A stretch of 64,000 bases of DNA from Lingula anatina (taxonomy: Eukaryota; Animalia; Brachiopoda): assembly GCA_051362555.1 (NCBI GenBank), contig CM120640.1:47036788-47100787 (forward strand). The letters are read 5' to 3'. Under the pieces are notes generated by a model. The model was not told the DNA's origin. It was given only the letters and a program-made list of their open reading frames with translations, and did not search any database. Below are positions 17,583 through 64,000 of this stretch, piece after piece (within the stretch, counting starts at the first letter, position 1; every line of letters begins with the position of its first letter). The translations under genes were made by a program, and so were the position numbers.

Positions 17583-17626
<44 letters not shown>

Positions 17627-19601: not shown

Positions 19602-19674
<73 letters not shown>

Positions 19675-35170: not shown

Positions 35171-35179
35171 GCACTTTTA

Positions 35180-35640: not shown

Positions 35641-36039
35641 ATTTCCTCAGATTCAATTATTAGGCATGTTAACAGTCTCATTATTTAACTAATAAGATAC
35701 GTAAAAGTGTTTGTTTGATATTTCCTGCATCTTTACAACATTGTTAATTGATTGTGTAAAAATGATGGTAAACTTGTTATCGTGTATTGTGTAATAAAGT
35801 GTCAAAAATGGAAATAAACTCATCATTGCAGTTTGTCAGATTCAATCATCCACTATGTTCAGAATCTCAGAATGGAGGAAATTGGACATTAAACACTGTT
35901 CTATTGATATTTTTCCCATCTCATCAATTTTCTTAGTTGGTCATATAAAAATGGCAACAAACTGTTTATTTTGTTTTATGTTAAAATATGTTAAAAATGG
36001 AAATAAACCCATTTCAGAACAGTGCTGTCTTGTTTACAT

Positions 36040-37570
36040 TTTGGCATTTTTAAGATGTGACTTTGAAGTTTCATGAGCCTGCAGACCTTTGCTAATCACA
36101 TTTTCTGAATATTCATGATACTAATATTTTATGATTAAAAATTGATGGTCATTATGCTGTTAAACATTATGTAATATTGCATCAAAACTTGAAGAAACCC
36201 CTATTTTGGGCACTGCTCCCATGATGACCATTTAAGAAAAACCATGTCACTTACTGTTTTCAAACTTACAGGAAAGAAACATAGGGCTAAAATACAGTTT
36301 CAGTAGGCAATGCAGTCTGTTTGGTAATTTTTTTCTGGCAGTTAAACAGTTTTTTGTGAAAATTTAATTTTTCACATATTGGCATTTTCAAGGTGTGACT
36401 TTGAAGTTCCATGAGCCTGCAGACCTTTGCTAGCCACGTTTTCTGTATGTTCATGTGACTAATATTCCATTATTAAAAATTGATGGTCATTATGCTGTTA
36501 AACATTATGTAATATTGCATCAAAATTTGAAGAAACCCCTATTTTGGGCACTGCTCTCATAATGACCATTTAACAAAAATCATGTCAATTACCGTTCTCA
36601 AACTTACAGGAAAGAAACATGGGTCTAAAATACAGCTTCAGTTGGCAATGCAGTCTGTTTGGTAATTTTTTCTGGCAGTTAAACAGTTTTTTGTGAAAAT
36701 TTAATTTTTCACTTATTGGTATTTTCAAGGTGTGACTTTGAAGTTCCATGATCCTGAAGACCTTTGCTTGTCACGTTTTCTGAATGTCCATGTTACTAAT
36801 ATTCTATTATTAAAAATTGATGGTCATTATGCTGTTAAGCATTATGTAATATTGCATCAAAATAGAAGAAAAAACAATTTTTGGTGCTGCTGCTATGATG
36901 AGCATTATGGGAAAACTGTGTTATGACTGTCAAACCTTTAAAAAAGAAACACAGGACTAAAATGCAGAATGAGTTGGAAAAGCAGTCTAATTGGCTTCTT
37001 TTTCTGGAAGTTATACATTTGAGTGAAATATTCATTATCTTTTTGGCATATTCATTGTGGGACTTGGAGCTCCCATGGACATGAAGCCGAATGGTAATCA
37101 AATTTTCTACATGTCCATGCTATTTATTGTCAATAATCAAAGATTGGTGATAATTATTCTATAATTTATTATGTAATGTTACATCAAAATTGACAATATT
37201 TTTGCATTGCTACTGCAAACATTATGAAAAGAAAACTGTGTTACTTATTATTATTTTTAACTTACAAGTATGATTTTTAGGATTGGCATGCAGTTCAAAT
37301 TAGAAAGCCAGGTCAATTGGGTTATCATTTATTATTGATTTTATGCAATTTTGTGTGAAATTTTAATTTTTCTCATTCTGGCACTTTCTAAGTATAAACT
37401 TGAACTCTGATGGGCCTGAAGCCTTATGCTTTTACTTTCGGCGTTGTTACCTGTTGTGCATAATTAAAATTTGATGTTGACTGTGCAGTAAAACATAATG
37501 TATTATTGCATCAGAATTTGTAGTCTCCTATTTTGTGCATTATTGTTTTGTGCTTTTCTTAAGATGTGAC
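36040..37570. repeat. ~337 bp tandem repeat, 3 good plus ~2 degenerate copies
   Basis: GTGACTTTGAAGTT at 36057, 36395 and 36732; more diverged copies follow. Confidence 0.8.
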
Positions 37571-41478: not shown

Positions 41479-44400
41479 TTAGTATCCAGGTAAAGCAGCC
41501 TTAGTCTGAGCAATGGCATCCAGAAGCTGTTGCCACAAATCCCCCAGATCGGACTTGTAAGGAGCCACAACCTGTTTAAGTTCCTCGAGCTTGTCAAGAC
41601 CGGCCTGTTGAGCATTTTGTAGGACCTAGAATATGATATAAACTTTGCTGTAAATATACATATACTGAAATTTTAACAACGTTCTATATCAGTATATAAC
41701 CAAATTACAGAACTTTACTTACGGTTGTGGTCATAAGTTTGATGTTTTCAAGATGTCCTTTGGTCTGGTTCACAGCGTCACCAAGCTTCTCCTGCACGTA
41801 TGCTACAAGGTCAGCATGTTTCACCTTGAGGTTGTTCAATACGTCATTTAAGGTGTCTTTTACTTTCGCCCACCAATCTCGAAGTCCTCTCTTGCCTTTT
41901 AAAAACGATAGCGGATGGAATGTGCATATAATCGTATAAATACAATAATATTCATATTGGATTAATTTTAGCATCAAATCTCCCGCTTTATGAGAAAATT
42001 ATACAAATTGCACGTGTATCAGTAATGCGTCATACATTACGTTATTTGGCGGATTTTTACGAACTGGAGAGAGGATAAGTACCTGTACGTCAAGTTCGAA
42101 AAAGGTACAGCTTCTTTTCTTTTCTTAACTAAACAAACCGTCATTTCAGAATATCAAATGACTTGGAAAACTTACCAAAAAGACTCTGGAGTCCCTTGAA
42201 GAAATTGTCGGCAAGATCCTTGAAAGCAGCGGTGAACTTGTCCTTCAGGCCACTTAGGGACTTAAGGCCGTCTTCAATGGCTTGCTTGGCTTGGGCAGTG
42301 AGGGCACCTAGAATCTGGTCTGATTCACGGCTTCACCAAGCTTTCCCTTCACGTATGCTACAAGGTTAGTATATTTCCCCTTGAAGCTTTTCATTACATC
42401 ACCCAATGTGTCTTTTACTTTCGCCCACCAATCTAGAAGTCCTCTCTTGCCTTTGAAAAATGATAGCACATGAAATTTATACATACAATAGTATAACGCT
42501 TAAGCAGATAACTTATTTTATAACCACAATGATATTCATAGTGGATTCATTTTACCATCAAATCACCGGCTTTTTGAGATAGGCCTACTTATACTGAAAT
42601 TTTAAAAAGATGTTTACAAATCCATTTAAAGCGAGTTGAAATTTGAACAGATCGTGTATTTTTTTTTCTGTGCTAAATATAACCCTCGGTCTTTTTCGCC
42701 AAGCCCCATTTAAATAATTATGCAATAGCGCGTGTAGTTGGCAACCTTGGTGACCTAAATTTTAAATAAGAAAAAAAGAATCAATTAAATTCAATGATCA
42801 CCATTTCATAATTAGCAGATTATCATTTTATTATTTACCAATAATTAATGTTCCGAATCCATATTCCATTTAAAAAAGCAAGAAAATGATCCATTGTGAT
42901 ACGCAATTGGCCAAATCAACTTATAAAATTGATAAATGTTATCCATTTGAAGATACACGAATGAGACCAATGGAATCCACCCACTGAAATCAAAGATAAG
43001 TAAGAAAAACTGAATAGAAAAACTGATAGTAAAAAGAACATTAGAATTAAAAAGGCTCTCTGTGTGTCATCTCCCCGTCACTTTTTGTCCAATATAACAA
43101 AACTTCACGGCAGTATCCCCCATACCTTCTGTTCATGGGCCACGGCAGAGTTAACCTGTTCTACGGCCTCCAAAGACTTTCCAAACTCAGTCTGGGCAGC
43201 GCGGAGGACACTTGGATTAGAAAATAGCACCTTGCAATAGGCATAAATCGGTGTGACGTTCCAAATATAGCTTACCTTAAGATGAGCAATAATAATATTC
43301 CTACAGTTTTTTTTTACCATGTCAGCGCTAGTCAGCGACTTTAAAAACATGCGTAGAACGTGTAAACGATCAAAACGATTATCATATCTGGGAATCGATA
43401 AGTAGTCACTTACGCTCTCTTCTCCTCGTCCAAATCACGCTTGATTTCCTCATCAAAAACAGACCTGAAAGCACGAACTGCAGTCTGGATCTCGCCCTCA
43501 ACAATAGCAGCAGCTGAAACATTGTGATATATATAAATATATACGTAATATATAAACCACGTCCTCAGCAGCTGAAACGGTGCGAATAATAAATCAATAA
43601 AAAGATAAAACGATATCTATGGAAGATTGGAGAAAAAACGAACAGCGATTACTGTTAGATATGTGACATGAGCATGTTGAGGTGAGTGTTTTGACGAAGA
43701 AGATGAAGATAGATTGATTTTGCGTTTATTACTTTTGGCTCTTTTTTAGATGCGCAAGTCAATGCCATTTACTTTATCCAAATCCATTTGCTACAATTTT
43801 TAATTCGTCTGGTTCGAACTAAATCCATTGTCATCCTCGCCACCTTGAGACCTCGTGCGCAGTGTCAAAATTCAATACAGATTATGTGTTTATTCATTGC
43901 ATATCGATATTTGTAAATACATATTCTATGAATCAAAAATAAATTATATTATTTTTTATAGAAAAAAAATGCCATCTTTGCTTTAAGCACACAAATAAAT
44001 TAATGTGAAGAATCGAATGGACAGAAAGCAGTCAGAGGTGGTTCACTCTTATTACAACGTAAAACGTATGTTTTTTAACAATTTATTTGTTATTTCATTA
44101 TTCTTTTCCTTATTTCGAAATACCAAACCACAATGATTTCTTTGTGGATCGGAGTGTTTCTTTCGGGGCGGATAAGTGGCAAAATTTTCTATTAGAAAGT
44201 ATGCTGATTGCGCCGCGTCACGTTGCATCGAAACTTTTCTTTTGGCGGACGGTCGTACAACTGTAGTTTCCCCTCTTTGTTTATTTCAGAAGATTGCGCC
44301 AAAATGTATTTCTAGATAATGGATAATTTTCATGTTTTTTTCCGGATTTATTCAAGTCAATGACATTAGCGCGTTATGTCAAATCGTTCGTTTTTCATGC

Positions 44401-45858
44401 ATAATATAAATGCTTTAAACATTTTATTTCTTATAATTGCTCACCACCTACATAACTCTTGTTTTCAAAATTCGCTCATTTGTCACAAATTAACTTGCAC
44501 TGTCCGTGTTTATCAATAAGATTAAAGAGGCGTAGTTGGGGGTACAGAGGGTGGAGTAGATCCGGTCAAGACAATGTGCTTGACGTTGTAGGCAGCCTGC
44601 ACCACCTGGGTCCACAGACTTCCGAGATCCTGCTTGTAAGGCTCCAAGAACTCCAGAAGTTCCTTGGTGGCGGCAAGGCTAGCATCCTTGGCGTGGGCAA
44701 GGTACTGAAAGTGACAGATTTTGTATTGATTGAAGGTTACTTATGCTGTAGAGTTACTATATTTCATGCGCATGTGCTGAAGACATAATATTCTGCACTT
44801 GTAAGAAATTCCGAAAACGTAGCAACAAAAGTTAAACTAAATTACAAGCAATTTTAAGTCTTAGTTAAAAGAGGCTAAAAATAGGCACATCATTGCAAGT
44901 TGTGCAACTAGAGTTTTGTTACACGAAACAAACCATGCTGAAATACACATACACCAAATGTCTGGCACTGAAAAAATTAGCTTTTTTTTTTTAAACTATT
45001 ACGCAGACGAAAAGTGTGTTCGAATTTTTCAAATAATTATTCATTACCTCTTGGGCGATGAGCTTGACGTTGTCGAAGTGTCCCTTAACTTTGCCCCACA
45101 GATCTCCAGCGAACTGTTTGACGAAGACTTGAAGGTCAGCGAACTTGGAGCTGAAACCTCCCAGAACCTGAGAAAAGGTGTCCTTCACTCCCTGCCACCA
45201 TTCAGCTACACCACGGTCAGCCAGAACCAGTGCCACAGTCTGATGGTATATACAAAACGATACTGTTTTCGGTAAAGAACCAATTCAGCCAAATAAATTG
45301 CACGCACCCTAAACCGGCAACGTGATACCATGGCAGAAGTAAATATCAACTAATCAAGAGAGTGTTTTGATCGTTAGACTTAAGAATGTAAAACCTAAGT
45401 CTTACCTTCTATAACCCCCTTAGTAAAAGTACCTTAACAATTTAAAACAGAGCTGATTTGATGCCGACAAATTGACGTTCTTACCTCATCCAAAAGTTCT
45501 TCTTCGAAGTTTTCGAACAAATCACGCTTGCCTGAAAATAAACAAAGATGAAGTAAAAAATGCACATTGAACTTTGCCAACTGAGTTTTCAAAAAGCTCT
45601 GTAATTCAACGAAATTTCACTTCATATGACTAAAAGGCTTTGATTCCGGTGTAACGTGTAAGTTCCCCATGATAGGGTGTCCGCTTCCCATTCATTTGCA
45701 CAGGTAAGCCTCGCCTAAGATTTTGACCCACATAGGTCAGATGTCCATTATAACTAAATGGAGGGCGGACTTTCTGTTACACGGACCCTCAGTTTCGTTA
45801 CATCCGGCGCGTTTGACACAATGGCTTTGATAATGGTCACAAAGCTGCAATATGATAG

Positions 45859-45902
<44 letters not shown>

Positions 45903-48042
45903 AAGTTCAGAAACGCCAAGTACCAATAAAGAGCCTTGTACTAAAATGAAATGTGATCCACCGAACAGCATGTTCTTTGTTTTAAGAATTTGCACTTCAC
46001 AAATGGTCTTAATAGAATTTGCTTGTCTCATCTTATGGTGCCGTATTGTATGCGGTCTTGCTAAGACAGCATAAACACACCGATTTGCTATATGCATTCG
46101 ATCTCAACTTTACAGATAATGCATATTTCAAACGATAAATAAACATTTAAGATACAGTAAATAAGTATTTGATTCGTACCGAAAAGACCACCGAACATGT
46201 CCAATAAGCCTTGGAACCAGCCAGAAAATTGGCTCTTCAGTGTGCTAAGGATAGCCTTGGCGTCGGTCAGGTACTTGCCGCCCATTTCTTTAAGTTGATC
46301 TGCAATCTGCTTAGCCTGCTCTAGCAGGCCCTTGCCGACCTAGAAAAGAAGGCCAATTTGAGATGAAACATTTCTATCCAGTCAAAATTCAAAATACGTC
46401 ACAAGCAGCAAATGCATAGTGTCTTTAGATATTTTTTATCGAACTTAGATTTAAAGAATATGAATATTGTCTGGCTCATGGACTTAAAATGAAATCAGAT
46501 GTCCTTACTTTTGTACTTCTGAACATTGATAACGTAAAAAAAATCTCATACCACGTGACCGGTTGCCACAAGACTGTTGATTTTATCTGTGATATTCTTC
46601 AGTTTCCCCTCCAGTACCTGACCCAGGACAGTCTGGGTGGCTGTTGTGAGGCTATAACAAGTATCAATTCTTAATACTAAACATTTAATTTAACGCACAG
46701 GCCTTGTTTTATGATTTTCAATTAAATACGCTTTAAAATAATTGAAAGATTAGACTTATATCCAACCAAACAGCTGCTCAAAGCACTTCCCCGCTATGAA
46801 AATTAATTCAAAATTCTGTAAACACCAAATTAAAATAGCTACAATTAAAACCCAACAACTTTCCATTAATTTCACTTTCCATTTATTTCTTTTTATTTTT
46901 ATCCGGACTACCGTTTATATTTGAGCATGGAATGTTTATGGCATCTAGCTACAACCACTAGAACGCGTAAGAGCAGGTTGAATATCAAACTTCTGCCGTA
47001 CCAGCACGAAAAATCAATGCGACAGCACGTTTTTATGCGTTACGGGCTCGGCACTGAACGGTCGCAACGGTACTAACATTGATGGTCCTCATAATAATGC
47101 ATCTGTCTTAAATTTCTGGTACTTACGGGTTGGCTTCGCGGACATGGCGTGGAGAATTGACTTCGTTCACGAGAGCCGCAATCTCATTGTCCAGATTCAC
47201 TAATTACATAAATCAAAAACCAATTAAATTGCAATTGTGTTACTAACACATCAGTGCTTTACTGCCAAAGAATTGTTTATTAAAATGAGGAAAAGCTAAC
47301 AAGTATAAAATGATGAGAAAAAGTAGTTTAATCAGATACATCTAATGCTGAACAAATCTACAGGGTTACTACTTAATATGGAATAACTGCCCTGGCCTGC
47401 AAACTCCCCAGATATGAGCCCAATTAAAATCTGTGGGCGGAAGTAACTCACAGAATTAATAGCTATGGTCATCGACCGGTAAATAGTGATGAACTGCGAC
47501 AGGCAAATATCACTGCGTGGAATGGAATCCCCATCCAAACTCTAAAAAAACTTGTCACAGGGTATGCCATGTAGGATGAGGGCGCTGCGAGCGGCTGCTG
47601 GAGGTCATACCCGCTATTGATGACTTTCATGATTTACTGTAATGAGTTCGTTGACTGTGTAACGTATCACTGTCCGGAGGCTATCATTTTCTTTAATATC
47701 TTAGCTTAAAATTAATACTGACATCGAACTGTTGATATGGTTTTCTGGGGGTGTTCTTTTCTTTTGAATGACATCTTATGTCAGATTTGATATTATTGAC
47801 AAAAATATCTCACAACAGAAGACTGGATATTTTTTATCACTCAGTGACATACTTTTTTGATGAATCAAGCCAAAAAAATTATTAATCAGCGCTCAAATAA
47901 AAAACATTCCCTATTAAGTAGTAACCCTGTACATTGTAACCTTAATACTTGCAAGTAATGTAAAACTCATCTACTTACGGCGGACAAAATCAGCCTGTGC
48001 AACAACGAAGGTGGCGACGAGTACGAAGGCCAAAAACTTCAT
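41479..48042 (-). pseudogene. G4: rearranged chimeric paralog, probable pseudogene
   Basis: Exons 48042-47979, 47199-47127, 46651-46552, 46339-46180, 45531-45485, 45239-45048, 44704-44536 (donor GT>CT), 43513-43414, 43210-43126 (15 nt deletion), truncated exon 42754-~42732, extra B2 exon copy 42450-42314 fused out of frame to the A2 exon 3' half (to 42176), then 41895-41723, 41625-41479. Confidence 0.8.
47361..47929 (+). mobile_element. Internally deleted Tc1/mariner element in a G4 intron
   Basis: 24 bp TIR CAGGGTTACTACTTAATA(T/G)GGAAT, TA flanks, transposase C-terminal relic LPWPANSPDMSPI...MPCRMRALRAAAGGHTRY*; absent from the same intron of G2 and G5. Confidence 0.85.
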
Positions 48043-49812: not shown

Positions 49813-50809
49813 TTAGTACTTAGTGGCATAGCCACGTGACCTAATAACAGGTGCCAGTCTACGAGGCAAGGATTCATATAATTGTCTGATGCGTTCAGGG
49901 CTTATGCTGGCCCAAGCATGAAACACTGAATATAATAGAGTTTCTCTGCTGGTTAGACGGGTATTTGTCAAAAGTTTTGACATATCATTCCACACATTTT
50001 CTATTATGTTTGCATCCGGACTCTGGGCAGGCCACATCACCCTGCCAATGTCCTGTTGGTCAAACCAATCATCAACTGCTCTGGGCCTGTGACAAGGAGC
50101 ATTGTCATCCTGGTGAACAAATGGATAATTCCTGTCACCAAACATGTTAGTGATAGATGGTAACAAGCCTTACTCCAAAATATCGATATATTTCTAGTGA
50201 TTCATGTTTCCATCAACCACTATCAATTCGCCCACGCCATGGATGATGATGCAGCCCCACACCATGATGAATATGCTGCTCCGGGTTCGAAAATTCAGTG
50301 CATGTGGTTCAAATGCTTTACCAGCAGTTCGCCAGCATCGTACCCGTCTGTCATCAGAGGTCAGACCAAAGCGACACTCATCAGAAAAAAATATATAGGA
50401 CTAATTGTCATGGACTGTCCAGTTCCAGATCCTGTTGACCCTAGTTCACTCTACGTTGCCTGTTTTGTAACGATATAAGAGGTTTCAGTCTTGCTACCCA
50501 GCTGTACACTCTATGAGCATGTAACCGACGCCTAGCAATTTTCACAGACACATTCTTATGTGTGAAATTGTTCCACTGTGTTGTCAACTGACAAGCAGTG
50601 TCGTTTGTTGATAACCTGGACATCAAATTCAGTCGTCGGTCTTCACGGCCAGTAGTTTTTCTTGGACGACCCATCAGACGCAATTTGTCTCTTGATCCAG
50701 TGTTTCTATACCGAGACCAGACCCTCTGCACGGTTCTGACTGAACAATTCAATTGTATCGATATTCTGACATTGCTTATATTCCGCCTCTTCAGGTTAAT
50801 AACTTGCAC
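49813..50809 (-). pseudogene. Tc1-like transposase with stops and a frameshift
   Basis: HTH region with GRPRKTT.REDR; FSDECRF; MVWGCI; QDDNAPCH followed 34 residues later by E in SPDANIIENVW; C-terminus RGYATKY. Stop at 50441-50443, further stops near 50170-50200, frameshift near 50400-50440. Confidence 0.9.
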
Positions 50810-50934: not shown

Positions 50935-52107
50935 TGTACATGTACAAGACCAACAATACAATTCCATGGTATAGCGGTTTTATACTCATTAGTCACATTA
51001 TAAGTCGACCAGGCATTATAACTACCCAAGATCTGCCTACTTTTATCACTCTGAGTTAGGGGGTGACACTTCTATTGTCCAGTGTGTGTACATTATTTGG
51101 TAATTTGGCTCGCCCCTAGTAATACAAAGAAGGAAAACAAGAGGCAGACTGGTTGTTTGCAAGATCCACCAAATCCCTCTAATACCTCAGTGTGAGATTA
51201 CACTAAAATTGAATATTTGTGTGAAGACTTAATTTTTCATCATTTTGAGTTTTTAACCAATAAAAAGGGTAGATCCCTGGCAAATACGGTTGTAATTTTC
51301 TATCGCATCAGAAGGTAATACACTCATCGAAGAATCTTGAATAGAAAGAAAGACCTTAGTATCGGATGTATATATTTTGCTCGTTTTAATTTGCCCAAAT
51401 GCCTGTTTGCATTTTAATACTTCTAAAAGGCCAGTGCTATTTTTCAACAGCATTTTACCTTGAAGAAATCTTTGCATGCAGCTTGGTCTCTGGAAATTTG
51501 ATCAATCTTTTCAACTTTTCTGTCGCCTTTTAAATTATTTTTACACATTTGTGCTTATGTCTTATTGTAAAGCGATATTTTACAAGGCAATTGACCGATC
51601 TGCATTTTGACAAATTCCATATTTTTTCTTTCAACAAACTCCCCACCTCTTATCAGTATTATTGTGTAATAATATAAAGATTTAAGACCAACTATTTTAT
51701 CTAAAACATTTTTTCAATTCTTCATTGTTTTCATGAAGTAATTTTAAAGGCGATCAAATTTCCCAAATATTAGTGTTGTTTTGAATTGGATATCAAACAT
51801 GTTTAAAATAAATTATACATTAAGTTATACATTGTATTTCAAAGAACAAGGAATTTTCTAAGTTTGAACTCACAAAATAGCAGCCCGATGTCCATATATT
51901 GTCTATTAGATCAGCTCAATGTCGCATTGGAGAATACTTTTCGGAAATAACGGATAAAAATTACCCCTGTTTAACAACACCGTGAAACATCAAATTCAGT
52001 TTTTTATTTCTCATGAAACTGTTTCAATATAACAATAATGTCAAAAATTGACATTATTACAAAATTAAGTTACACTGGATCCTTTAAAACGTATAAGTTG
52101 AAGTTGT

Positions 52108-54746
52108 TTAGTATCCAGGTAAAGCAGCCTTAGCCTGAGCAATGGCATCCAGAAGTTGTTGCCACAAATCCCCCAGATCGGACTTGTAAGGAGCCACAAC
52201 CTGTTTAAGTTCCTCGAGCTTGTCAAGACCGGCCTGTTGAGCATTTTGTAGGACCTAAAATATGATATAAACTTTGCTGTAAATATACATATATTGAAAT
52301 TTGAACAACGTTCTATATCAGTATATAACCAAATTACAGAACTTTACTTACGGTTGTGGTCATAAGTTTGATGTTTTCAAGATGTCCTTTGGTCTGGTTC
52401 ACAGCGTCACCAAGCTTCTCCTGCACGTATGCTACAAGGTCAGCATATTTCACCTTGAGGTTGTTCAATACGTCATTTAAGGTGTCTTTTACTTTCGCCC
52501 ACCAATCTCGAAGTCCTCTCTTGCCTTTGAAAAATGATAGCAGATGGAATGTGCATATAATCGTATAAATACAATAATATTCATATTGGATTAATTTTAG
52601 CATCAAATCTCCCGCTTTACGAGAAAATTATACAAATTGCACGTGCATCAGTAATGCGTCATACATTACGTTATTTGGCGGATTTTTACGAACTGGAGAG
52701 AGGATAAGTACCTGTACGTCAAGTTCGAAAAAGGTACAGTTTCTTTTCTTTTCTTAACTAAACAAACCGTCATTTTAGAATATCAAATGACTTGGAAAAC
52801 TTACCAAAAAGACTCTGGAGTCCCTTGAAGAAATTGTCGGCAAGATCCTTGAAAGCAGCGGTGAACTTGTCCTTCAGGCCACTTAGGGACTTAAGGCCGT
52901 CTTCAATGGCTTGCTTGGCTTGGGCAGTGAGGGCACCTAGAATCTGCTTGGCGTCGGTGTATGTTTGGGCTCCCTGCTGCTTTAACAGCTCGGTGTAGTT
53001 GGCAACCTTCGCCAGCATCTCACTGGTGACCTAAATTTTAAATAAGAAAAAGAATCAATTAAATTCAAAAATCACCATTTCATCATTAGCAAATTATCAT
53101 TTCATTATTTACCAATAATTATTGTTCCGAGTCCATATGTCTTTTTAAAAAAGCAAGAAAATGATCCATTGTGATATGCACTTTGCCAAATCGACTTAAA
53201 AATTGATAACTCTTATCCATATGATACATGAATGAGATCAATCGAGTCCAACCACAGAAATTAAAGATAAGTTAGAAAAACTTATACTAAAAAGAATATT
53301 AGAACTAAAAACACTCTGCGTGTGTCATCTCTTCGTCACTTTCTGTCCAATATAACAAAACTTCACGGCAATATTCCCCATACCTTCTGTCCATGGGCCA
53401 CGGCAGAGTTAACTTGTTCTACGGCCTGCTGGAGGGCGGTCTCCAAAGCCTGTCCGAACTCGGTCTGCACAGCGCGGAGGACACTTGGAATAGAAAATAG
53501 CACCTTGCAATAGGCATAAATCGGTGTGACGTTCCAAATATAGCTTACCTTAAGATGAGCGATAATAATATTCCTACATTTTTTTGGCCTTTTTGAATAT
53601 TTCTGAATATTTACCATGTCAGCGCTAGTCAGCGACTTTAAAACATGCGTAGAAGGTGTAAACGATCAAAACGATTATCATATTTGGGAATCGATAAGTA
53701 TAGTCACTTACGCTCTCTTCTCCTCGTCCAAATCACGCTTGCTGATCTCCTCATCAAAAACAGACCTGAAAGCACGAACGGCAGCCTGGATCTCGTCCTC
53801 CACAGCAGCAGCAGCTGAAACATTACGATATATATATATATGTAATATAAACCACGACCTGTAGTCTGGATCTCGTCCTCAGCAGCTGAAACACGAACTG
53901 CAGTCCGGATTTCAACCTCAGCAGCTGAAAGATTATTATATATGCACTGTATGTAATATATAAAGCACATACGGCAACCTGGACATCGTCCTCTGCAGTT
54001 GAAACGGTGCGAACAATAAATCAATAAAAAGATAAAACTATATCTATGGAAGATTGGAGAAAAAAACGAACAGCGATTACTGTTAGATATGTGACATAAG
54101 CATGTTGAGGTGAGTGTTTTGACGAAGAAGATGAAGGTAGATTGATTTTGTATTTATTACTTTTAGCTATTTTTAGATGCACAAGTCAATACCATTTACT
54201 TTATCCAAATCCATTTGCTACAAGTTTTAATTCGTCTAGTTCGAACTAAATCCATTGTCATCCTCGCCACCATGAGACCCCGTGCGCAATGTCAAAATTC
54301 AATACAGTTTAAGTGTTTAAGTTTGCAAATCAAAATCTGTAAATACTTTTAATACATATTCTATGAATCAAAAATAAATTAGATTAGAAAAAATTTCCAT
54401 CTTAAGCACACAAATAAATTAATGTGAAGAGTGAAGAATTGAATGAACAGAAAGCAGTCAGAGGTGGTTCACTCTTATTACAACGTAAAACGTATCTTTT
54501 TTAACAATTTATATTGTTATTTCATTATTCTTTGACTTATTTCGAAATACCAAACCACAATGATTTCTTTGTGGATCGGAGAGTTTCTCTCGGGGCGGAT
54601 GAGTGGCAAAATTTTTGTATTAGAAAGTATGCTGATCGCGTCGCGTCGCGTTGCGTCGAAACTTTTCTTTTGGCGTATGGTCGTACTAGTCTCCCCTTTC
54701 TGTTTATTTCAGAAGATTGCGCCATTGCGTATTTCTATATAATGGA

Positions 54747-54777
<31 letters not shown>

Positions 54778-57058
54778 GCGTCTGGATTTATTTAAGTCAA
54801 AGGCATTTGCTCACGCCCGTGATGTCGAATTATGCGTTTTTCATGCATAATATAAACGCTTTAAACGTTTTTTTTTTCTAATAATTGCTCACCATCTACA
54901 TAAAACTTGTTTTCAAAATTCGCTCATTTGTCACGAATAAACTTGCACTGTCCGTGTTTATTAACAAGATTAAAAACGCGTACTTGGGGGCACAGGGGGT
55001 GGAGTAGATCCGGTCAAGACAATGTGCTTGGCGTTGTAGGCAGCCTGCACCACCTGTGTCCACAGACTTCCAAGATCCTGCTTGTAAGGCTCCAAGAACT
55101 CCAGAAGTTCCTTGGTGACGGCAAGGCTAGCATCTTTGGCATGGGCAAGGTACTGAAATTGACAGATTTTGTATTGATTGAAGGTTACTTATGCTGTAGA
55201 GTTACTATATTTCATGCGCATGTGCTGAAGACATAATATTCTGTACTTGTAAGAAATTCTGAAAGCGCAACAAGCAACGAAGGTTTAACTAAATCACAAG
55301 CAATTGTAAAGTCTTAGTTTATGAGGCTAAAAATAGGCATTGCATCATTGCAAGTTGTGCAGCTAGAGTTTTGTAACACGAAACAAACCGTGTACTGAAA
55401 TACACGTACACCAAATGTCTGGCACTGAAAAAATTAGCTGTGTTTTTTTTCAAACCATTACGCAGATGAAAAGTGTGTTCGAATTTTTCAAATATTTTTT
55501 TTACCTCTTGGGCGATGAGCTTGACGTTGTCGAAGTGTCCCTTAACTTTGCCCCACAGATCTCCAGCGTACTGTTTGACGAAGACTTGGAGATCAGCGAA
55601 CTTGGAGGTGAATCCTCCCAGAACCTGGGACAAAGTGTCCTTCACTCCCTGCCACCATTCAGCTACACCACGGTCAGCCAAAACCAGTGCCACGGTCTGA
55701 TGGTATATTAAAAAAGATACAATTCTGCATTAAGGAACTAATTCAGCCAACTATATTTCATGGCAAAAAAATATATCAACTAATCTAGAGAGTGTTTTGA
55801 TCGTTAGACTTAAGTATATAAAACTTAACCTTCTTAGTAGAGGTACCCTAAAAATAAAAATAGAACTGATTTATTGCCGACAAATTGACGTTCTTACCTC
55901 ATCCAAAAGTTCTTCTTCGAAGTTTTCAAACAAATCACGCTTGCCTGAAAATAAACAAAGATGAAATAAAAAAAAATTCACATTGAACTTTGCCAACTGA
56001 GTTTTAAAAAAGCTCTGTAATTTAACGAAATTTCACTTCATATGACTACTTTTTATTGATTCCGGTGTAACGTGACAGAGAGTTCCGCATGATAGGGTGT
56101 TCGCTTCCCATTCATTTGCACAGGTAAGCTTCGCCTAAGATTTTGACCCACATAGATCAGATGTTCATTATACCTAAATGGAGGGCGGACTTACTGTTAC
56201 ACGGACCCACGGACCAAGTATCAACCCCAACTCTGAGTTTTACGAAGGTATTCTAGAAGGTATGCCCGATAGTCAAGAAGTGTTTATTTTCAGATCTCGT
56301 GTTTTTTTTAAATTTATTTATTAATTTTAATTGTGCGTAAATGCTCCGGACAGTTGCGCACTCTGTACCACACCCATATGTATATATATATTGGAGTTCA
56401 GAAACGCCAAGTCAGAATACAAACACAGACACATACACACATACACACACACACACAGAATGTCCTTCGTTTTAAGAAGTTACCCGCCACAAATGGTCTT
56501 AACAGAATTGGCTTGACTTACTATATGGTACCGTACTGTATGTGGGCTTGCTAAGACAGCATAAACACACCGATTTACTGATGCATTAAACTTTACAGAT
56601 AATATATATTTCATAATAGAAAAACATATAAGATACAGTAAATGTGTATTTGATTCGTACCGAAAAGACCACCGAATGCGTCCAAAAAGCCTTGGAACCA
56701 GCCAGAAAATTGACTCTTCAGTGTGCTTAGGATAGCCTTGGCGTCGGTCAAGTATTTGCCGCCCATTTCTTTAAGTTGGTCTGCCACCTGCTTAGCCTGC
56801 TCTAGCAGGCCCTTGCCGACCTATAGAGAAGAGCCAATTTGAGATGAAAAGTTTCTGATTTCTATCGAGTCTTTACCATAAAAGTACAAACAAACTTTGG
56901 TAATTCATAACACGTCACGAGCAGCAATTGCAAAGTGTCTTTGGATATTTTTTTAATCGAATTTAGATTAAAAAAATATGAATATTGTCTGGCTCAGGGA
57001 CTATAAATGAAATCCGATGTCTTTATTCTTGCACTTCGATCTGTACATTGACAGTGTA

Positions 57059-57105
<47 letters not shown>

Positions 57106-57962
57106 CATACCACGTGACCGGTTGCCACAAGACCGTTGATTTTGTCTGTGATATTCTTCAGTTTCTCCTCCAGTACCTGGCCAATGGCAGTCTGGGTGGC
57201 TCTTGTGAGGCTATAACAAGTATCAAATCTTAAAATTAAACATTCAATTAAACGCATTTGCCTTGCTTTATGATTTTTAATTAAATGCGCTTTAAAATGA
57301 TGAAAATATTAGACTTACATCCAACCAACTAGCAGCTAAAAGCACTTCCCCGCTATGAAAATTGATTAATTCAAAATACTGTAAAATTCAAATTAAAATA
57401 CCCAATTATTTAACCTTCCATTAATTTCTTTTAATTTTTGTCCGTAATATTTATTGTTTAAATTTGAGCAACCACTAGAACTCGTAAGAGCAGGTTGAAC
57501 TTCAAACTCCTGCTGTACCAGCACGAAAAATCAATGCGACAGCATACTTTTATGCGCTTCGGGCTCGGTACTGACCGGTCGCAAAGGTACTAACATTGAT
57601 CGATGGCCCTGATAAAAACTGCATCTGTCTTAAATTTCTGGTACTTACGGGTTGGCTTCGCGGACATGGCGTGGAGAATTGACTTCGTTCACGAGAGCCG
57701 AAATCTCATTGTCCAGATTCACTAATAATGATATAAATCGAAAACTATCTGTTTTGACTGTGACAAATATCGTTACTAACATATCAGAGTTTAACACCCA
57801 ACATTGTTTCTTTAAATAGAGAAAAAGTTGTAAAGTCAGAGAATGCTGAATGAATCTAACCGAAACACTTGCAAATAATGTAAAACTATTTTACTTACGG
57901 CGGACGAAATCAGCCTGTGCACCAATGAAGGTGGCGACGAGTACGAAGGCCAAAAACTTCAT
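52108..57962 (-). CDS. G5: intact secreted amphipathic-helix polyprotein precursor, 12 coding exons, 517 aa
   Basis: Exons 57962-57899, 57721-57649, 57210-57111, 56820-56661, 55944-55898, 55696-55505, 55152-54984, 53814-53712, 53483-53384, 53030-52805, 52524-52352, 52254-52108. All GT..AG; 1554 nt open from MKFLAFVLVATFIGAQA to ...KAALPGY*. Sites RHVR, GKR, SKR, EKR, GKR. Confidence 0.9.
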
Positions 57963-58196
57963 GTCTGAAATATGGAAAATTTCTCGTGACCCCAAACCTT
58001 AAAACGTTTCCGCACAGCCACGAAAATAAAGAAATTTGTAAGTAACTACTCTTAACCAACTAATAGCTTTATATTTACTTGTAAATTTGTGGTGTTCTTT
58101 CTTTGATAACAATCTGCACGTTTTTATATACGTTTCATTGACGTTCATATATAACCATACATGGCAAGATATTTTAAAACTTATGTTCCAACTCAC

Positions 58197-58298
58197 CTCC
58201 TAGTTGTTGTGGTGCTAATGTGGACGAACGGTATCCAACGTCGGTTTTTATAGCCTTAGCTTATGGGAGTGTGCGGTCTGCTTCTTATCTTACGTGAC
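58197..58298 (-). promoter_or_regulatory. G5 core promoter and non-coding exon 1
   Basis: TATAAAA 58246-58252; GTCACGTAAGATAA 58285-58298; GTGAG donor after 58197. Confidence 0.65.
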
Positions 58299-60896
58299 AA
58301 GGTGTGAGGCGATCTTAGAAAACGGTCCAAGCACAGGGCACACGTTGGACATATTTGAAGAGCATGACTGATTGGTGAAATCGGTTGTTGTCATGACGAA
58401 TGTTTAAATACATGTATTATCTGGCGTCATCATGAGATAGCCTCTGCGTTGATTTGGAGATCTAACTTCTAACAAATATAATGGGACATGCGACTCTTGC
58501 TTGGGTGCTATTAATGCTCAACCTGTCACATGTCACATAGATTATTTCAAATTCCTTTAGACATAAACTGTAATGAAAATGATTGTTGGGGGCCAGCAGT
58601 GCACAAATATAATGTAAAGTTTCGGCTGCCAAAGATATTTTATAGACATGGACATGCTCTGCACGAAGAAAAATGAGATTGTCTGTGTGCGTTTGGCGCC
58701 CTGAGAGGTTTAAAGTCAACGCATTTAAGACAGTTCGTTGCGAGACCATTTTTCATAATTTTGTAAAAAAAATTTGGTTAGTAACAATAAATACAAAAAT
58801 AGTATTTTCTTCTTGCTGAATTTCTGGGTGCTACAAGCAAATTCCTCTTTTATTAATGAATGCGTAAATGGTGACCCCAGTTTTTAACAAATATGATTTA
58901 TTACGAGATATAAATATTTGATACCATCATAGGAATAGTTCCCTAAAAAATTAATTTAATGCGAATAACCAACCCAATACTGTAGCATCTACAGAGCACT
59001 TTCGGACAGCTAGTAATTGAATATTTTTGTATCAAAATAAAACCGGTCGTGAAAGTTATCTTCTAACACTTGAAATAGAGAATTTGAGATCAGTGACCCA
59101 TTATGGCAATGGGATATTGTAGGAACGACAAAAATAACAGAAATGAATGAATAGATAAATAAATCGCATTTAAATAGTGCTATGAATAAATAAGGTGATT
59201 TTGAAGTTGTATATTAAAGAAATAGCACCAAAATCGCTTTGACAATTCGTTTGAGGAAGTACTTTGTGACAATTTCGTTTTTTTACATTTAAAGATTATT
59301 CAAGACAGAGTACGTTTTATGCACACGATGGACCATATCTTTACAATTATAATGACCAGGTTAGATAGCAATATATTTTGAAATTTGAAAATTTCATAAT
59401 AGCGTTACAAAACGTGTTTGTGGGAAATCAAACCACTGTTAGCTATCACCAAAGCCGCACAGGTCATGGGGATGGGACTAATCTTATGACCTGGCTAGAC
59501 ACGGTTACCAATTACATGTACGTACCCACCACCACCACCACCAACACACACGCAGACACACGCATTTCATAAATGTGCGATAGGCATTCATAATGTACAG
59601 GCACAATGTGTGTATTCACTGTATACGTATACGCTTACAGCTACATCATTTGGAAAAATAGCTCGACACCTAATAATACAATTTGATATATGCTTACTGA
59701 TAAATCCATGTAGAGAATTGACACTGCAACCATTAAATGCTAGGATTTCAATGGGACAAATTACAATAATCTGATGACTGTAACATTCAAACATAATGAA
59801 ACTTTTTTTCTTACTTCCCTGGCTAGTGTGTGCTCAGGCAGGCAGGCGGTTTACAATATTTATTATGGAAAGACATATAAGATGTTTTAATATGCAGTGC
59901 AAACCAAATTTCACCAGTAAATAAAGTGAAATTGCAAAGTCACAAAGGAAGGTGAATTAAATACACAAGTAAAGCAAAAATGAAAATGTATCCTATGACT
60001 ATAATAAGAAAATATTGAGAAAGAGGGGTAAATTATCGACGCAAAATTTCATTGCAAGCTTTCTCTGTAAGTATTTCGCAATTTTAACAATGCTTTCTCT
60101 GTAAGTATTTCGCAATTTAACAATGCAACAAATGGAACTTACGATATCGCTATGTATGTTTTGGGCATATAATAGCTATCAAAATATAAATGTAGAGTTG
60201 GGAAAAATCCAAGGTAGCGTTTGTTGAGATGGCATGTGTACATTTCGCCTTCATCAATCACTTTTGCGATGTGTCGTTTAAACTCCACCACACAATTGTA
60301 AGGTTATGTGGTTAGGCAATTTTTTTTTCTAAAATTAAGGTGAAACTTTAGAGAAAATGAAAATCATCATATCTCCCCCCTCCCCCCACAAATTCTAAGA
60401 TATATCTAATTATATACATTTAATAGTTAATGTTTTTTAAAGCGCATTTGAATAAGTCCGTTACAATGAGGGAGTGATAAACAAAATTTTAATTAAAAAT
60501 ATATATCTGGTCCGAGGCAATTTTTTTCGTTTTGTCGATGTACATAAGCGTGTGTGTGTGCATTAATTTGTTACAGCTGGGACAACCTATTTTGCCCTCT
60601 ATACTTTACTAATACGTTTGTTATCCTACAGGTGGCAATTTGAACAGATGCAAGGTTCCACCCGTTTGTAAACAATTCCATAATAATTGCAACAGGTCAA
60701 AATTATTTGCATAATGTTGTCAACAAGTGATTGCTTTGTTTGTCGTTAGACGTTTACCATTAAAATTAATACTAATATCATGCTCAAATATCGACTGCAA
60801 TCACGTTAATATGTTAAAAATAAAATAAATACCAATAAATGAAATAAACAATCAATACAAATTTTATTGCATGAAGTTTCGTAACAAAATTACATT

Positions 60897-63111
60897 TTAG
60901 AAGGTTGGAGGAGGGGTGGAACCAGTGAGGACGATATGTTTAGCGTTGTAGGCAGCCTGAACAACCTGGGTCCAAAGATCTCCCAAATCCTGTTTGTATG
61001 GCTCCAAGAACTCCAACAGCTGCTTGGTGGCGGCAAGGCTGGCGTTCTGGGCATGTCCGATGTACTAAAAGTATAATGAAATATTTGATTAACCTGCTTT
61101 CAACAATTGAACAATTACATAATGGTTTTTACAGGTCAATTGGAACAATTGGCTTGCATTGTGAAATGTTTGTTATATGTGTCTAAAATTTTAAAAAATC
61201 ATGAACAGTGCAAGTCAAATTATTATGCTTACAGGTCAATCTCCAAAACACACGTGCGAAACGAAAATGACAGAACAGTGCAATCTCTATCCAGTTCCAT
61301 TAGGTTGAACAATACCACACAATAATTTTGAAATTTTAGAAAAATCAGTTTACCTCTTGGGCAATAAGTTTGACGTTGTCGAAGTGTCCCTTAACTTTGC
61401 CCCACAGATCTCCAGCGTATTGCTTGATGAAGACTTGGAGGTCGGCGAACTTGGAGGTGAATCCTCCCAGAGCCTGTGACAAAGTGTCCTTCACTCCCTG
61501 CCACCATTCAGCTACACCACGGTCAGCCAGAACCAGTGCCACAGTCTGCATAAGAATGGTATGTGAAGTTTACATGAAAAACGACGATCGAACACCTGCC
61601 ACTTTGATACTTAAAATCAAACATTATTTGGCTTAAATGCATTTTACTATTCAAGCTAGAAAATATGACAATATTATCTATGATATTTTAAAGGTTTATG
61701 GAAAATGCAAATGTTAGTGTACATAAAGAGGGAGAATAAAAAAGAGAAAAATTTTACTTCATCCAAAAGTTCCTCTTCAAAGTTCTCGAACAGATCACGT
61801 TTGCCTAAAAGTGCATAAAATATACAACACATTAATAACTGTAGCCCAGTAGCGGATTTAAGGGGGGGGGTGTCAGAGGGGCCCTGACTGCTTGATGAAG
61901 CGACAGGCACAGTAACAGGCTTTACATGCGCAGATCCCCATCCCCCCTTCAAATAATCTTAGATCCTCCCCTGGTAACCGTACCGAGTAATCAAAATTAC
62001 TCCATACTAGAAGATATTTTGTTTGCACTAGCCTTCTTGCCCATTTAGCATTTATTTGCATACTGAAGCCAAAATGTAAAAGAACACTAACTAGACAGTA
62101 CAGCTCACCCTGAGCTTCAGACATAACTTGACACTAACCTCTTCACTATAGCCTATCTAACTTGACATGATGAAGATAGGCTAAAGTGAAAAGGTTAGTG
62201 TCAAGTTATCTCTGAAGCTCAGGGTGGTACAGCTAAGCTCGCAAAAAAATCGAAAATTAACATCAAAATCCCATAACTAAATTTTAACTAATTGGCACAT
62301 TTAACTAAACAATAAATTTTGTAAAAGTAATGAAATTAAACCGATCGTGCCGATTTTCAAAAGGAAGCTGACTTTCTACTGAACTAACCACCGAACTAAA
62401 TTTCAGGTAAACAGGTGAACAATGGATGTGTTGGACGACAACAGACAGACACAACAACCAGAATGTATACTGACACGTACAGTGTCTGTATGTAATGTGA
62501 CCGCAATAAAGTTGGTGGACTCTACATTACAAAGATCACAGCTTACCAAACAGACCGCCAAAAGAGTCAAGGATACCCTGGAAAAAGCCAGAGAATTGGT
62601 CCTTGAGACTGCCCAGGATGGCTTTGGCGTCGGTAACATATTTGCCGCCCATTTCCTTCAGTTGCGCGGTCAGGGTCTTGGCCTGTTCCAGAAGAGCTTT
62701 TCCCACCTAGAAAAAATGAAAATCTTTATGCCTTGATGAGATAACATTAACTCACTGCACGCCGTTACATACAATAAGTGGCTTGATTTACCAAAGAATA
62801 ATAATGAATAATAAAATGTTGTTATGAACAAAGATGAAGTGTTTTTTATGTGTAAATCTTCATCTGATACCTCTAATACTTTACAACATTATCCCATGTT
62901 TATATATTCTGTATATTCTGTATGTAATATTATGTATTTAAAAAGGTAGAAATATCTTGTCGGTAATTATTCCAATTCTTAGTTATAATTCATAAACGTT
63001 GATATTCTCACAGAGTGACCAGTGGACAACAGGTTGTTGATTTTGTCGGTAACATTCTTCAACTTCTCCTCCAGAGTTTGTCCCAGGGCGGTGGTGGTAG
63101 CTCTCTCGAGA
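60897..63111 (-). CDS. G6: half-size single A-B unit paralog; 5' exons presumably beyond the window end
   Basis: Exons 63111-63012, 62706-62547, 61804-61758, 61545-61354, 61064-60897; open and GT..AG; ends ...IVLTGSTPPPTF*; AATAAA at 60863-60868; no A2/B2 exons downstream. Confidence 0.85.
61847..61973. mobile_element. Short MITE-like insertion in a G6 intron
   Basis: Imperfect TIRs CAGTAGCGGATTTAAG / CTTAGATCCTCCCCTG with inner G and C runs. Confidence 0.45.
62106..62226. mobile_element. 121 bp foldback MITE with 8 bp TSD
   Basis: ~53 bp inverted arms (CACCCTGAGCTTCAGA...); GTACAGCT at 62098-62105 and 62227-62234. Confidence 0.88.
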
Positions 63112-64000
63112 CTGTAAAAGAAGAAAACGAGACGTATTGTGGTTATTGGCCCAGGTTACACAATAGATTGCTATTCTATATTTACCAAATGGAGCATAAG
63201 AGTATGCATCAAATGTAATTTAATTAGCTTCATCAAGGAAGTTTTATGGAACGTAACATTTAAAGTGTAAATTTAAATGAAATAAATAAACAAATGATAA
63301 AAAGATGAATTAAAAAAGGGGGCAATTTTTGTCTTAACTGAGGCGTATTTCATGATTGAAGTGGCATAATGCCAAAACAGCGACGCATTGGATTTGAACT
63401 TATCAGTGTGCAACGGCAAAGAACACCAGAAATTAAGATAATCTTACATGATAATCTTCGGGTCACGAAATATGTAACGTTCCAGTTTTTGCTCCTAATG
63501 GGTTCGTCCCACACAAATGCAACTTGCCCAGATACTGAACTCTCAGCATACTACATGACACGATCAATTTTGTGAAGGGGTGTGAGAGTAGGGACAGTTG
63601 GAGAGGATTAAGTTCAATGCCGCCGGAGTTAAATATAATCACTAAGTATAGTTTTGAATAAAAGCGTGCAGAGGGTTTAGTTGTGACTTCATGTGAAAAG
63701 GATTTAGGGCCATGCTTTTATTATGAAATAACTCAAATGTTTTAGGGTGTCTTTCCGTCATGTTCAAAAAAGATTTACGTTTAATGTGAAAGAATGGTAA
63801 TAAACTTTTTGTCATATATTTTGGGACTATAACGTCTAAGTTCCACTGTAATGTTTGCAATTTTAAAAGATTTTTGTGATTTGATCTTATAATGAAAGTT
63901 TACATGTAGTTATGTACAAATCTTCGTGTGGAAATAGGCTTTAGTTGTAGACAGTTTCAAAACATGTCACATAGTGAGCCACTGACAGTCAACATATATT

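Follow-up and report, generated by a model that had tools for sequence, protein, structure and literature searches.

Tandem one-unit and two-unit genes in Lingula anatina point to an old join behind an apparent former terminal exon

Results

The stretch of DNA analysed (the window; 64,000 nt of Lingula anatina, assembly GCA_051362555.1, contig CM120640.1, positions 47,036,788–47,100,787) holds a tandem cluster of genes, G1–G6, all on the minus strand, in which one-unit and two-unit copies stand side by side and whose helix-rich products are likely to be secreted. On balance, and by a modest lean, the cluster probably goes back to one ancestral gene in which a second, signal-less unit would have joined long ago behind unit 1. 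Exon 7 of unit 1 would then have two fates: a short precursor would result if the transcript ran on to the stop and poly(A) signal, and a long one if a weak donor were used to splice exon 7 to unit 2. G6 would be a unit-1 copy that lost unit 2 or did not receive it at duplication. Unit 2 may have come in as a complete gene, with promoter and signal exon disappearing afterwards, or as an incomplete duplicate whose start lay in intron 1. We infer all three of the following: the production of both isoforms, the order of events and the function of the proteins.

Two-unit genes and the exon-7 donor

The features of the intact two-unit genes, G5 and G1, are as follows.

58189–58352, minus strand: G5 promoter-like block, with a TATA-like box and 5′ non-coding exon, common to G1, G2, G4 and G5
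54984–57962, minus strand: G5 unit 1, 265 of 268 residues matching P0004
57962–57899 and 57721–57649, minus strand: G5 unit-1 exons 1 (signal) and 2 (propeptide)
57210–57111, 56820–56661, 55944–55898, 55696–55505 and 55152–54984, minus strand: G5 unit-1 exons 3–7
54957–54984, minus strand: composite end of G5 exon 7, with a weak phase-1 donor (A/gtacgc) at 54984
53815–54983, minus strand: G5 linker intron, 1169 nt, with degenerate repeats of the unit-2 acceptor at about 54009–53849
52108–53814, minus strand: G5 unit 2, five exons
53814–53712 (propeptide, phase 1-2), 53483–53384 (100 nt, 2-0) and 53030–52805 (0-1), minus strand: G5 unit-2 exons 1–3
52524–52352 (1-0) and 52254–52108 (terminal), minus strand: G5 unit-2 exons 4 and 5
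2818–8391, minus strand: G1, both units intact, open frame of 492 aa when its 12 coding exons are joined on paper
5737–5776, minus strand: G1 new donor (T/gtaagt, at 5776) and old tail

Joined on paper across a GT-AG linker of phase 1, the 12 coding exons of G5 give 517 aa with no internal stop. Read through instead, exon 7 continues into the tail STRF and a stop after 4 codons (54972–54970), with AATAAA 7 nt later (54962–54957), a signal present within 40 nt behind just 1 of the 39 ordinary internal donors in the cluster genes. The donor shared by G5 and G2 scores 2.7, compared to a minimum of 3.1 among the 39 internal donors on which the matrix was trained. Immediately behind the donor come the old tail, the stop and (in G5) the AATAAA, as though unit-1 exon 7 had once been terminal, and the weak donor and the relic tails and stops in G1, G2, G4 and G5 support the original prediction that a terminal exon had gained a donor. 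The read-through tails also fit the C-terminal habit of the family: among 76 homologues from outside Lingula whose terminal B module is complete, 20 end in F/Y (background 6.4%) and 12 combine such an end with Pro in the last 9 residues. The predicted junction of exon 7 with the unit-2 propeptide exon is present in the RefSeq model P0004, a poor model, since it runs out of frame past that junction.

In G1 the donor lies 26 nt upstream of the G5-type site (5776 vs 5750) and owes its origin to 4 nt inserted by comparison with P0002; the former coding tail, with 11 of 12 residues as in P0002, is now intronic and out of frame. That a conserved gene pair was joined twice over, once in the G1 lineage and once in that of G2/G4/G5, is very improbable. 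The 26-nt offset, the GA that G1 carries where G5 has its donor GT, and the modelling of P0002, a close relative of G1, as a single unit would all fit such a double origin, but it requires unit 2 to have lost promoter and signal exon on two separate occasions, and G1 retains the bases that follow the donor in G5, which points to a single old donor that was later replaced in G1.

Homology and age of the two units

One A plus one B module is the commonest form in the family (41 of 107 stored proteins), so the long form is taken as derived; the ABAB architecture occurred in 0 of the 107, and database searches returned neither a two-unit protein nor a longer protein holding unit 2, an absence that is weak evidence. 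The unit-2 exon phases 1-2, 2-0 (100 nt) and 0-1 are the same as in unit 1, so that the predicted homology of the halves with matching phases holds for these exons and fails for the 47-nt spacer exon, which is found only in unit 1. The propeptide exon of unit 2 can be aligned to the propeptides in P0009 and P0012, both single-unit proteins (p 0.001 each, 1000 shuffles), but its alignment with exon 2 of unit 1 is weak (p 0.05 and 0.11). Between G1 and G5, dS is 1.30 for unit 1 and 1.29 for unit 2, i.e. the same age. Purifying selection acts on unit 2 (dN 0.32, ratio 0.25) even though neither a start nor a signal exon is conserved in it.

Profiles of the signal exon and promoter matched only the four real copies, and no relic of a second gene was found in the linker intron (0.7–1.2 kb). 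The predicted splicing past the signal exon of the next gene is not supported by any such relic, the sole exception being a weak, unconserved ATG candidate in the G1 intron. A unit-2 signal exon, had one existed, would be divergent or deleted, which bears on this search.

G6 and the loss of unit 2

The G6 features in the window are the following.

63012–63111, minus strand: exon 3, 100 nt, phase 2-0, start of the A module, identical to P0006 residues 47–80
62547–62706, minus strand: exon 4, phase 0-1, end of the A module, leading into a G-K-R site
61758–61804, minus strand: exon 5, 47-nt acidic spacer exon, phase 1-0, with a weak donor (score 3.2)
61354–61545, minus strand: exon 6, B module, phase 0-0
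60897–61064, minus strand: coding part of terminal exon 7, ending in PPPTF and a stop at 60899–60897
60863–60868, minus strand: AATAAA, 28 nt beyond the stop

The end of G6 is as originally described, with PPPTF and a stop closely followed by the poly(A) signal. No first exons were found in 63116–64000; in the RefSeq-named P0006, a signal peptide and propeptide precede the sequence identical to exon 3. Exon 6 is 92–97% identical to its counterparts in G2, G4 and G5, and the identity is confined to the exon, which makes gene conversion likely. Between G6 and the G5 promoter, neither a unit-2 exon nor a relic of one was found. A match of the G6 3′ UTR to a unit-2 3′ UTR or to the G5 post-donor sequence was rejected, as 0 of 9 comparisons beat shuffles (best p 0.14); with no detectable sequence common to the G6 tail or 3′ UTR and the G5 donor region or unit-2 3′ UTRs, no deletion scar was seen.

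Three further copies are reduced.

12804–23515, minus strand: G2, decayed two-unit gene, donor A/gtacgc at 20313, retroelement in the last intron
29805–30694, minus strand: G3, orphan unit-2 fragment, last three exons
41479–48042, minus strand: G4, unit 1 identical to P0003 (268 of 268 residues)

G2 had been described as a long gene with PPPVPP in front of gtacgc; the donor is there, but the tail reads PPPVLP and the long gene no longer works. Its exon 4 is cut short, a deletion has removed unit 2 from the propeptide exon as far as the middle of the B exon, and the stop behind the donor has no poly(A) signal within 200 nt. G4 has C instead of G at donor position +1 (44535) and hence no donor, reading through to TTPL and a stop, and its unit 2 is scrambled at 42760–42170 (unit-2 exon 4). 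A working unit 2 has therefore already been lost in 2 of the 4 two-unit copies (G2, G4). No unit 1 was found upstream of G3, and partial copies do arise in the cluster, as G3 shows. Overall, G6 more likely lost unit 2 than predates the join.

Phylogenetic placement of G6

G6 fell within the unit-1 clade of the protein tree both without exon 6 (99/97) and with it (100/98), and appears as a unit-1 paralogue far younger than the split between units 1 and 2. Protein trees placed it beside G4 and G5, excluding the long-form G1, at 91/88 and 88/89. A position of G6 as sister to every long-form unit 1 was not rejected by the AU test (p 0.069, 0.078); the DNA tree without exon 6 put it outside at 46/8, G6 placement not being settled by the DNA trees, and shared derived sites for the G6 placements numbered 9 vs 6 vs 3. 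The unit-1 and unit-2 clades mirror one another, with stems (unit 1, 0.40–0.47; unit 2, 0.92–0.98) that are long compared to the internode of 0.11 that decides G6. Of the claim that a single-unit gene beside double-unit genes marks their origin, the derivation of the long form from one unit stands, while G6 as a relic from before the fusion is not established. The original prediction had set against itself a G6 nested among long forms with outgroups of long form only: the nesting is seen in the protein tree, with the AU test not rejecting the alternative, and the outgroups are mostly single-unit, which leaves the other half of that pattern unobserved.

These trees bear on an unlikely but serious alternative, in which two complete, divergent tandem genes were fused by read-through splicing after G6 split off, a later deletion removed promoter and signal exon of the second gene, and G6 never fused. 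The single unit as the usual family form, the terminal-exon relics behind the donor and the AU result for a basal G6 would all fit it, as would the deep divergence of the units, each retaining ancestral features that the other lost, and the lack of a supported pairing of units 1 and 2 in the tree without exon 6. However, the two units do group when exon 6 is included (90/90), the protein tree favours a nested G6 (91/88), a signal-exon or promoter relic was not found, and unit-2 loss is visibly common (G2, G4). Such a fusion further needs a join within a very short internode and the loss of every stand-alone unit-2 gene.

RNA reads from a relative

Four of nine raw-read RNA runs chosen by species label, with reads from a relative, were mapped, and two of the four gave no exon coverage; coverage was about 4–8x, and the reads were mostly 85–95% alike, indicating another population or paralogue. 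In run X4, unit-1 exons were covered together with ~57 nt beyond the donor (4 reads, 2 starts), while unit-2 depth was zero. Run X1 contained spliced unit-2 joints with 6, 4, 3 and 2 reads, its depth dropped to 0.07 in the bin containing the donor, and 14 of its reads (three listed groups, few starts) lay in or entered the linker intron unspliced. Neither the X4 read-through nor the X1 unit-2 reads were assignable to one paralogue. The 18 best-supported unit-2 read differences tested included 10 silent changes and 0 stops. No joint of exon 7 to unit 2 was listed among the mapped reads (threshold 3 reads from 2 starts).

The missing linker joint, and some sense reads in the intron upstream of the unit-2 propeptide exon, would fit a separate transcription of unit 2 from within the linker intron, or a minor read-through, with G1 and G5 as neighbouring gene pairs and the long protein rare or absent; this we regard as improbable. 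It would also fit the unit-1-only RefSeq proteins P0001–P0003, the unit-2 protein P0010 on another scaffold, and the hydrophobic ATG frame in the G1 intron with a phase-1 GT at 5360. Against it, P0010 begins at an internal Met, and the differing donors of G1 and G5 each preserve phase 1 and an open frame. The ATG candidate stems from a pyrimidine repeat, has a donor score of 1.8 compared to 13.4 in real signal exons and no counterpart in G2, G4 or G5, and is one of a kind of which 8 non-genuine examples occur in 128 kb, with thresholds chosen after the candidate was seen.

Discussion

In the favoured reading of one ancestral gene with an old join, exon 7 of G5 resembles the composite terminal exon with intronic polyadenylation that separates secreted from membrane IgM heavy chain, in that an internal donor, or a stop and poly(A) signal, would provide alternative ends. 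The choice in the cluster would add two whole secreted modules, whereas that in IgM adds a membrane anchor. Cluster paralogues also appear to keep one outcome each, with a strong donor in G1 and only the short form in G4 and G6. Separation of isoforms after duplication has been described for mutually exclusive exons, not terminal exons (PMC4494069).

Read-through gene fusions have been linked to segmental duplication (PMC6764479), and chimeric genes to tandem duplication (PMC5460883); as far as the covered parts of these sources go, they share with the cluster neighbours that are spliced in frame, the upstream gene leading to an internal exon of the downstream copy. The cluster differs from them in that both partners are paralogues of the same family, the join is old (G1–G5 dS ~1.3), and the downstream copy has lost its promoter and first exon instead of having them skipped. 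The mechanism of the join is known, an ordinary kind of gene evolution that will not surprise specialists. Stages of the join nevertheless lie side by side, from a weak donor with intact relic tail (G5) to a replaced (G1) or lost donor (G4), a ruined unit 2 (G2) and a solitary unit 1 (G6), and their coexistence in one cluster makes it a compact test case for terminal exons turning internal and reverting.

The precursor would be secreted, and cleavage at K-R/R-x-R sites would release amphipathic A and B modules that lack cysteine; the A module may be amidated at F-G-K-R, as in prohormone processing. All 12 modules examined (82–108 aa, net charge 0 to +2) have 0 Cys, a peak hydrophobic moment of 0.49–0.64 and predicted models that are helical. 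Being near-neutral and neither short nor strongly cationic, they do not suit a precursor of cationic linear antimicrobial or cytolytic peptides, a candidate that was rejected. By analogy, the modules would probably bind lipid like exchangeable apolipoproteins, which share the signal peptide, the lack of cysteines, the all-helical amphipathic modules and the near-neutral charge; in the cluster precursors, unlike in these, acidic spacers and basic cleavage sites separate two distinct modules. PF01442 (Apolipoprotein A1/A4/E) was matched by 20 of 40 family members at E <=0.001 and PF07464 (apolipophorin-III) by 7 of 40, with PF01442 scores far below the gathering cut-off of 90 (P0002, 34.4 bits; P0004, 19.3; P0003, 14.4), and single-exon Pfam scans gave nothing at cut-off. 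ApoA-IV was the best natural PDB sequence match (E 1e-6), with a designed helix bundle scoring higher. The unit-1 structure model (pTM 0.39) had a generic helical best fold match (Z 8.7) and no Foldseek match at E 0.001. The ESM Atlas yielded only a rotifer cluster at a chance-level score of 0.79.

The top protein matches of the cluster are uncharacterised Lingula anatina proteins. Literature searches, including six accession or locus names (0 hits), returned no paper on the A/B-module family; the covered part of the Lingula genome paper (PMC4595640) does not mention it, and the supplementary shell-proteome tables of that paper could still list the proteins. None of the Pfam models hit was a model of its own for the family. 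The cluster thus points to a secreted A/B-module family that is widespread in protostomes, undescribed, and without an assigned function in the searches made. Known members (Lingula LOC106166856/857/861/863 and LOC106159938, and proteins of Liolophura, Tachypleus, Larinioides, Argonauta and Tubulanus) have the signal-propeptide-A-spacer-B plan and the end of the B module in common with the cluster. More speculatively, and with rather less confidence than in the old join itself, a single weak donor in a formerly last exon may act as a reversible switch between two-module and four-module products in this pan-protostome family of processed apolipoprotein-like proteins, with paralogues fixing its states (both in G5, long-biased in G1 through its new donor, short only in G4 and G6) and with modules multiplied independently in chitons, spiders and brachiopods. 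Module number does differ among lineages, with ABAAB in a chiton, AAAB in a spider, and B x6 and A x7-B in unnamed members, compared to ABAB in the cluster.

Gene cluster and exon structure

The window (GC ~36%; eukaryotic DNA) contains a tandem cluster of six gene copies, G1–G6, all on the minus strand. The long genes consist of two homologous units, each with an A and a B module. The original prediction, that the long form arose by fusion of tandem genes and that the one-unit copy at the window end (G6) preserves the pre-fusion state, rested on a real finding, and its reading was partly right.

8391–2818, minus strand: G1, 12 coding exons, GT-AG introns, open frame of 492 aa
57962–52108, minus strand: G5, 12 coding exons, GT-AG introns, open frame of 517 aa
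63111–60897, minus strand: G6, PPPTF* end, AATAAA 28 nt past the stop
Minus strand: G4, unit 1 intact, C for G in the exon-7 donor, unit 2 scrambled
Minus strand: G2, decayed copy
Minus strand: G3, orphan end of unit 2

Unit 1 runs from a signal exon through a propeptide exon (phase 1-2), a 100-nt exon (2-0), an A-tail exon (0-1) and a 47-nt acidic spacer exon (1-0) to two B exons; unit 2 is the same series starting at the propeptide exon and lacking the spacer exon. A G5 exon used as a query returned uncharacterised Lingula anatina proteins. Among the RefSeq-named proteins, P0003 is identical to G4 unit 1 (268/268 residues), P0004 matches G5 unit 1 at 265/268 residues and P0002 matches G1 unit 1 at 238/252. 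Residues 47–80 of P0006, which also has a signal peptide and propeptide, are identical to G6 exon 3. P0006 stops two residues past G6 exon 5, the donor of which (61758) is weak (score 3.2), and no exon encoding its ending was found downstream of that exon within the window. A misplaced partial copy of a unit-2 B exon lies within unit-2 exon 4 of G4 (42314–42460); the out-of-frame tail of P0004 maps to this copy, and the RefSeq model may therefore be chimeric.

Protein family and the derived long form

With a profile as query, 1.84 billion representatives yielded 106 matches at E ≤ 0.001, the weakest of which may be unrelated amphipathic proteins; named members among the 20 matches looked up were from chiton, horseshoe crab, spider, argonaut and nemertean. 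The stored proteins number 107 (the 106 matches and P0004; four from Lingula). A single A with a single B module is the layout of 41 of them, the ABAB arrangement occurs in none, and several possess other multiples. From these comparisons, the long form is derived. Unit 2 is a complete unit that lacks only the signal exon and the spacer exon, as shown by its propeptide exon, which aligns with the propeptide located behind the signal peptide in the single-unit proteins P0009 and P0012 (p 0.001). Modules have multiplied differently in other lineages (P0005, P0007, P0008, P0014, P0020 and P0021; B x6, B x4, ABAAB, A x7-B and AAAB).

None of the Pfam matches was to a model specific to the family, and literature searches found no papers on it. 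The mechanism is already known: published work describes read-through fusion (PMC6764479), chimeric genes following tandem duplication (PMC5460883) and isoform separation among duplicates (PMC4494069).

A former terminal exon

Exon 7, the last exon of unit 1, appears once to have been terminal, and the prediction that a terminal exon gained a donor held up, given relic tails and stops behind the donor in four genes and a weak donor in G5 and G2. Read through the donor, exon 7 ends in STRF* in G5 (AATAAA 7 nt later) and in TTPL* followed by GATAAA in G4; in G2, the stop comes four codons on and no signal lies in the following 200 nt. P0002 ends in GTRFL*. The G1 intron still encodes 11 of the last 12 residues of this protein, out of frame, at 5772–5737; this old coding tail sits behind a 4-nt insertion that created the G1 donor. 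Of 76 homologues whose terminal B module is complete, 20 end in F or Y (background, 6.4%) and 12 have Pro-containing C-terminal tails with this final residue. The donor scores 2.7 in G5 and G2 and 7.6 in G1; all 39 internal donors score above the G5/G2 donor (3.1–13.4), though as the matrix training set their scores are favoured.

Of nine listed RNA read runs, four were aligned to G5 (51900–56290), with reads mostly 85–95% alike and therefore from another population or a paralogue. Coverage in X7 and X9 was confined to an intronic repeat. X1 contained sense-strand splice joints among unit-2 exons (3, 2, 4 and 6 reads) and an exon 5–exon 6 joint (4 reads); depth was 4.5 in exon 7 and dropped to 0.07 at the donor-containing bin, no exon 7-to-unit-2 joint was among the joints listed, and 14 unspliced reads formed three groups in the linker intron, which separates the donor from unit 2. 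In X4, unit-1 reads extended ~57 nt beyond the donor (an estimate from depth 1.55, 4 reads), with zero unit-2 reads. Among unit-2 read differences, the 18 with the best support (80 further rows fell outside this test) included 10 silent changes and no stop. The RNA is compatible with two outcomes at exon 7, for which the IgM composite exon is the comparison system, and the long transcript itself is predicted.

Search for a second signal exon

The proposal that splicing skips the signal exon of the next gene found no support in the linker introns (698, 1022 and 1169 nt). Signal-exon and promoter-block nucleotide profiles gave meaningful scores at the four real copies only, and a scan for sites combining an ATG, a hydrophobic stretch and a phase-1 GT had no hits in the G2, G4 and G5 linkers. 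The same scan found two weak candidates in the G1 linker (5360 and 5289; donor scores 1.8 and 1.5 vs 13.4 for real signal exons), against a background of 12 such sites in 128 kb, four of them real. A second signal exon thus seems absent, rather than skipped, and its absence would make whole-gene fusion with later deletion indistinguishable from a partial duplication that began in intron 1.

In G1, G2, G4 and G5, degenerate tandem copies of the acceptor and opening codons of unit 2 precede the true exon, several scoring well as acceptors; the regions concerned are:

53712–54009: degenerate acceptor repeats
4984–5162: degenerate acceptor repeats
43414–43580: degenerate acceptor repeats
19597–19773: degenerate acceptor repeats

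The unit-2 propeptide exon is unusually similar between G1 and G5 (94%, dS 0.27).

Position and origin of G6

Exon 6 of G6 (61354–61545) and G2 (20798–20989) is 97% identical amid unrelated flanking introns, and was for this reason excluded from trees. The identity stops at the exon borders and the other exons are far apart; this pattern suggests exon-limited gene conversion. Protein trees were built from 19 rows, 13 of them taken from stored proteins picked among the AB proteins with the best scores. In these trees, unit 1 and G6 formed a clade (99/97 when exon 6 was omitted, 100/98 when it was included) separate from unit 2 (100/100), and G6 grouped with G4/G5 versus G1/P0002 (91/88 and 88/89). 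When only A or only exon 7 was used, most branches were unresolved. Its place inside the unit-1 clade makes G6 a unit-1 gene that arose long after units 1 and 2 had separated, and not the common ancestor of both units.

Constraining G6 outside all long-form unit 1 was ~5 log units worse (p-AU 0.069 and 0.078). DNA trees gave no firm position: the one without exon 6 placed G6 basally at 46/8, p-AU was 0.17–0.45 in the three other partitions, and derived DNA sites (9:6:3) favoured G5+G6. Between G1 and G5, dS is 1.30 in unit 1 and 1.29 in unit 2, so the pair duplicated as one block, and a unit-2 dN/dS of 0.25 indicates that unit 2 remained coding. A primary one-unit state demands a join within one short internode, while a secondary state allows it anywhere along the long stem. 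Because of this demand and the unit-2 loss in progress in G2 and G4, a secondary origin is the likelier reading, by a modest margin, though no deletion scar joining the G6 3' UTR to unit 2 was found. The 2.6 kb between G6 and the G5 promoter contain no unit-2 relic. The pre-fusion status of G6 is the less probable part of the prediction.

Protein features

All 12 modules lack cysteine, have a net charge of 0 to +2 and form amphipathic helices; predicted models are all-helical and confident at the B module end only. Fold searches gave generic matches, and Pfam Apolipoprotein was matched by 20/40 members, far under the cut-off. The modules are flanked by basic sites, and A ends in F-G-K-R, which we take to be a cleavage and amidation signal, as in prohormone processing. 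We infer that these are probably processed, secreted lipid-binding modules acting like exchangeable apolipoproteins, a proposed similarity of mode without assignment to that family.

Mobile elements and repeats

The last intron of G2 contains a retroelement with overlapping long frames (13238–17246, plus strand), presumably a DIRS-type tyrosine-recombinase element. One frame matches Pfam reverse transcriptase, RNase H and Dam-like methylase. For the recombinase frame, Pfam gave no match at E 0.001. Short inverted matches pair 12997–13060 with 17403–17731. Between G5 and G4 lies a Tc1/mariner-type transposase in two frames (49816–50809, minus strand; HTH_Tnp_Tc3_2 and DDE_3 over cut-off), and between G4 and G3, self-matches mark tandem repeats of ~161 nt and ~338 nt (35179–37517).
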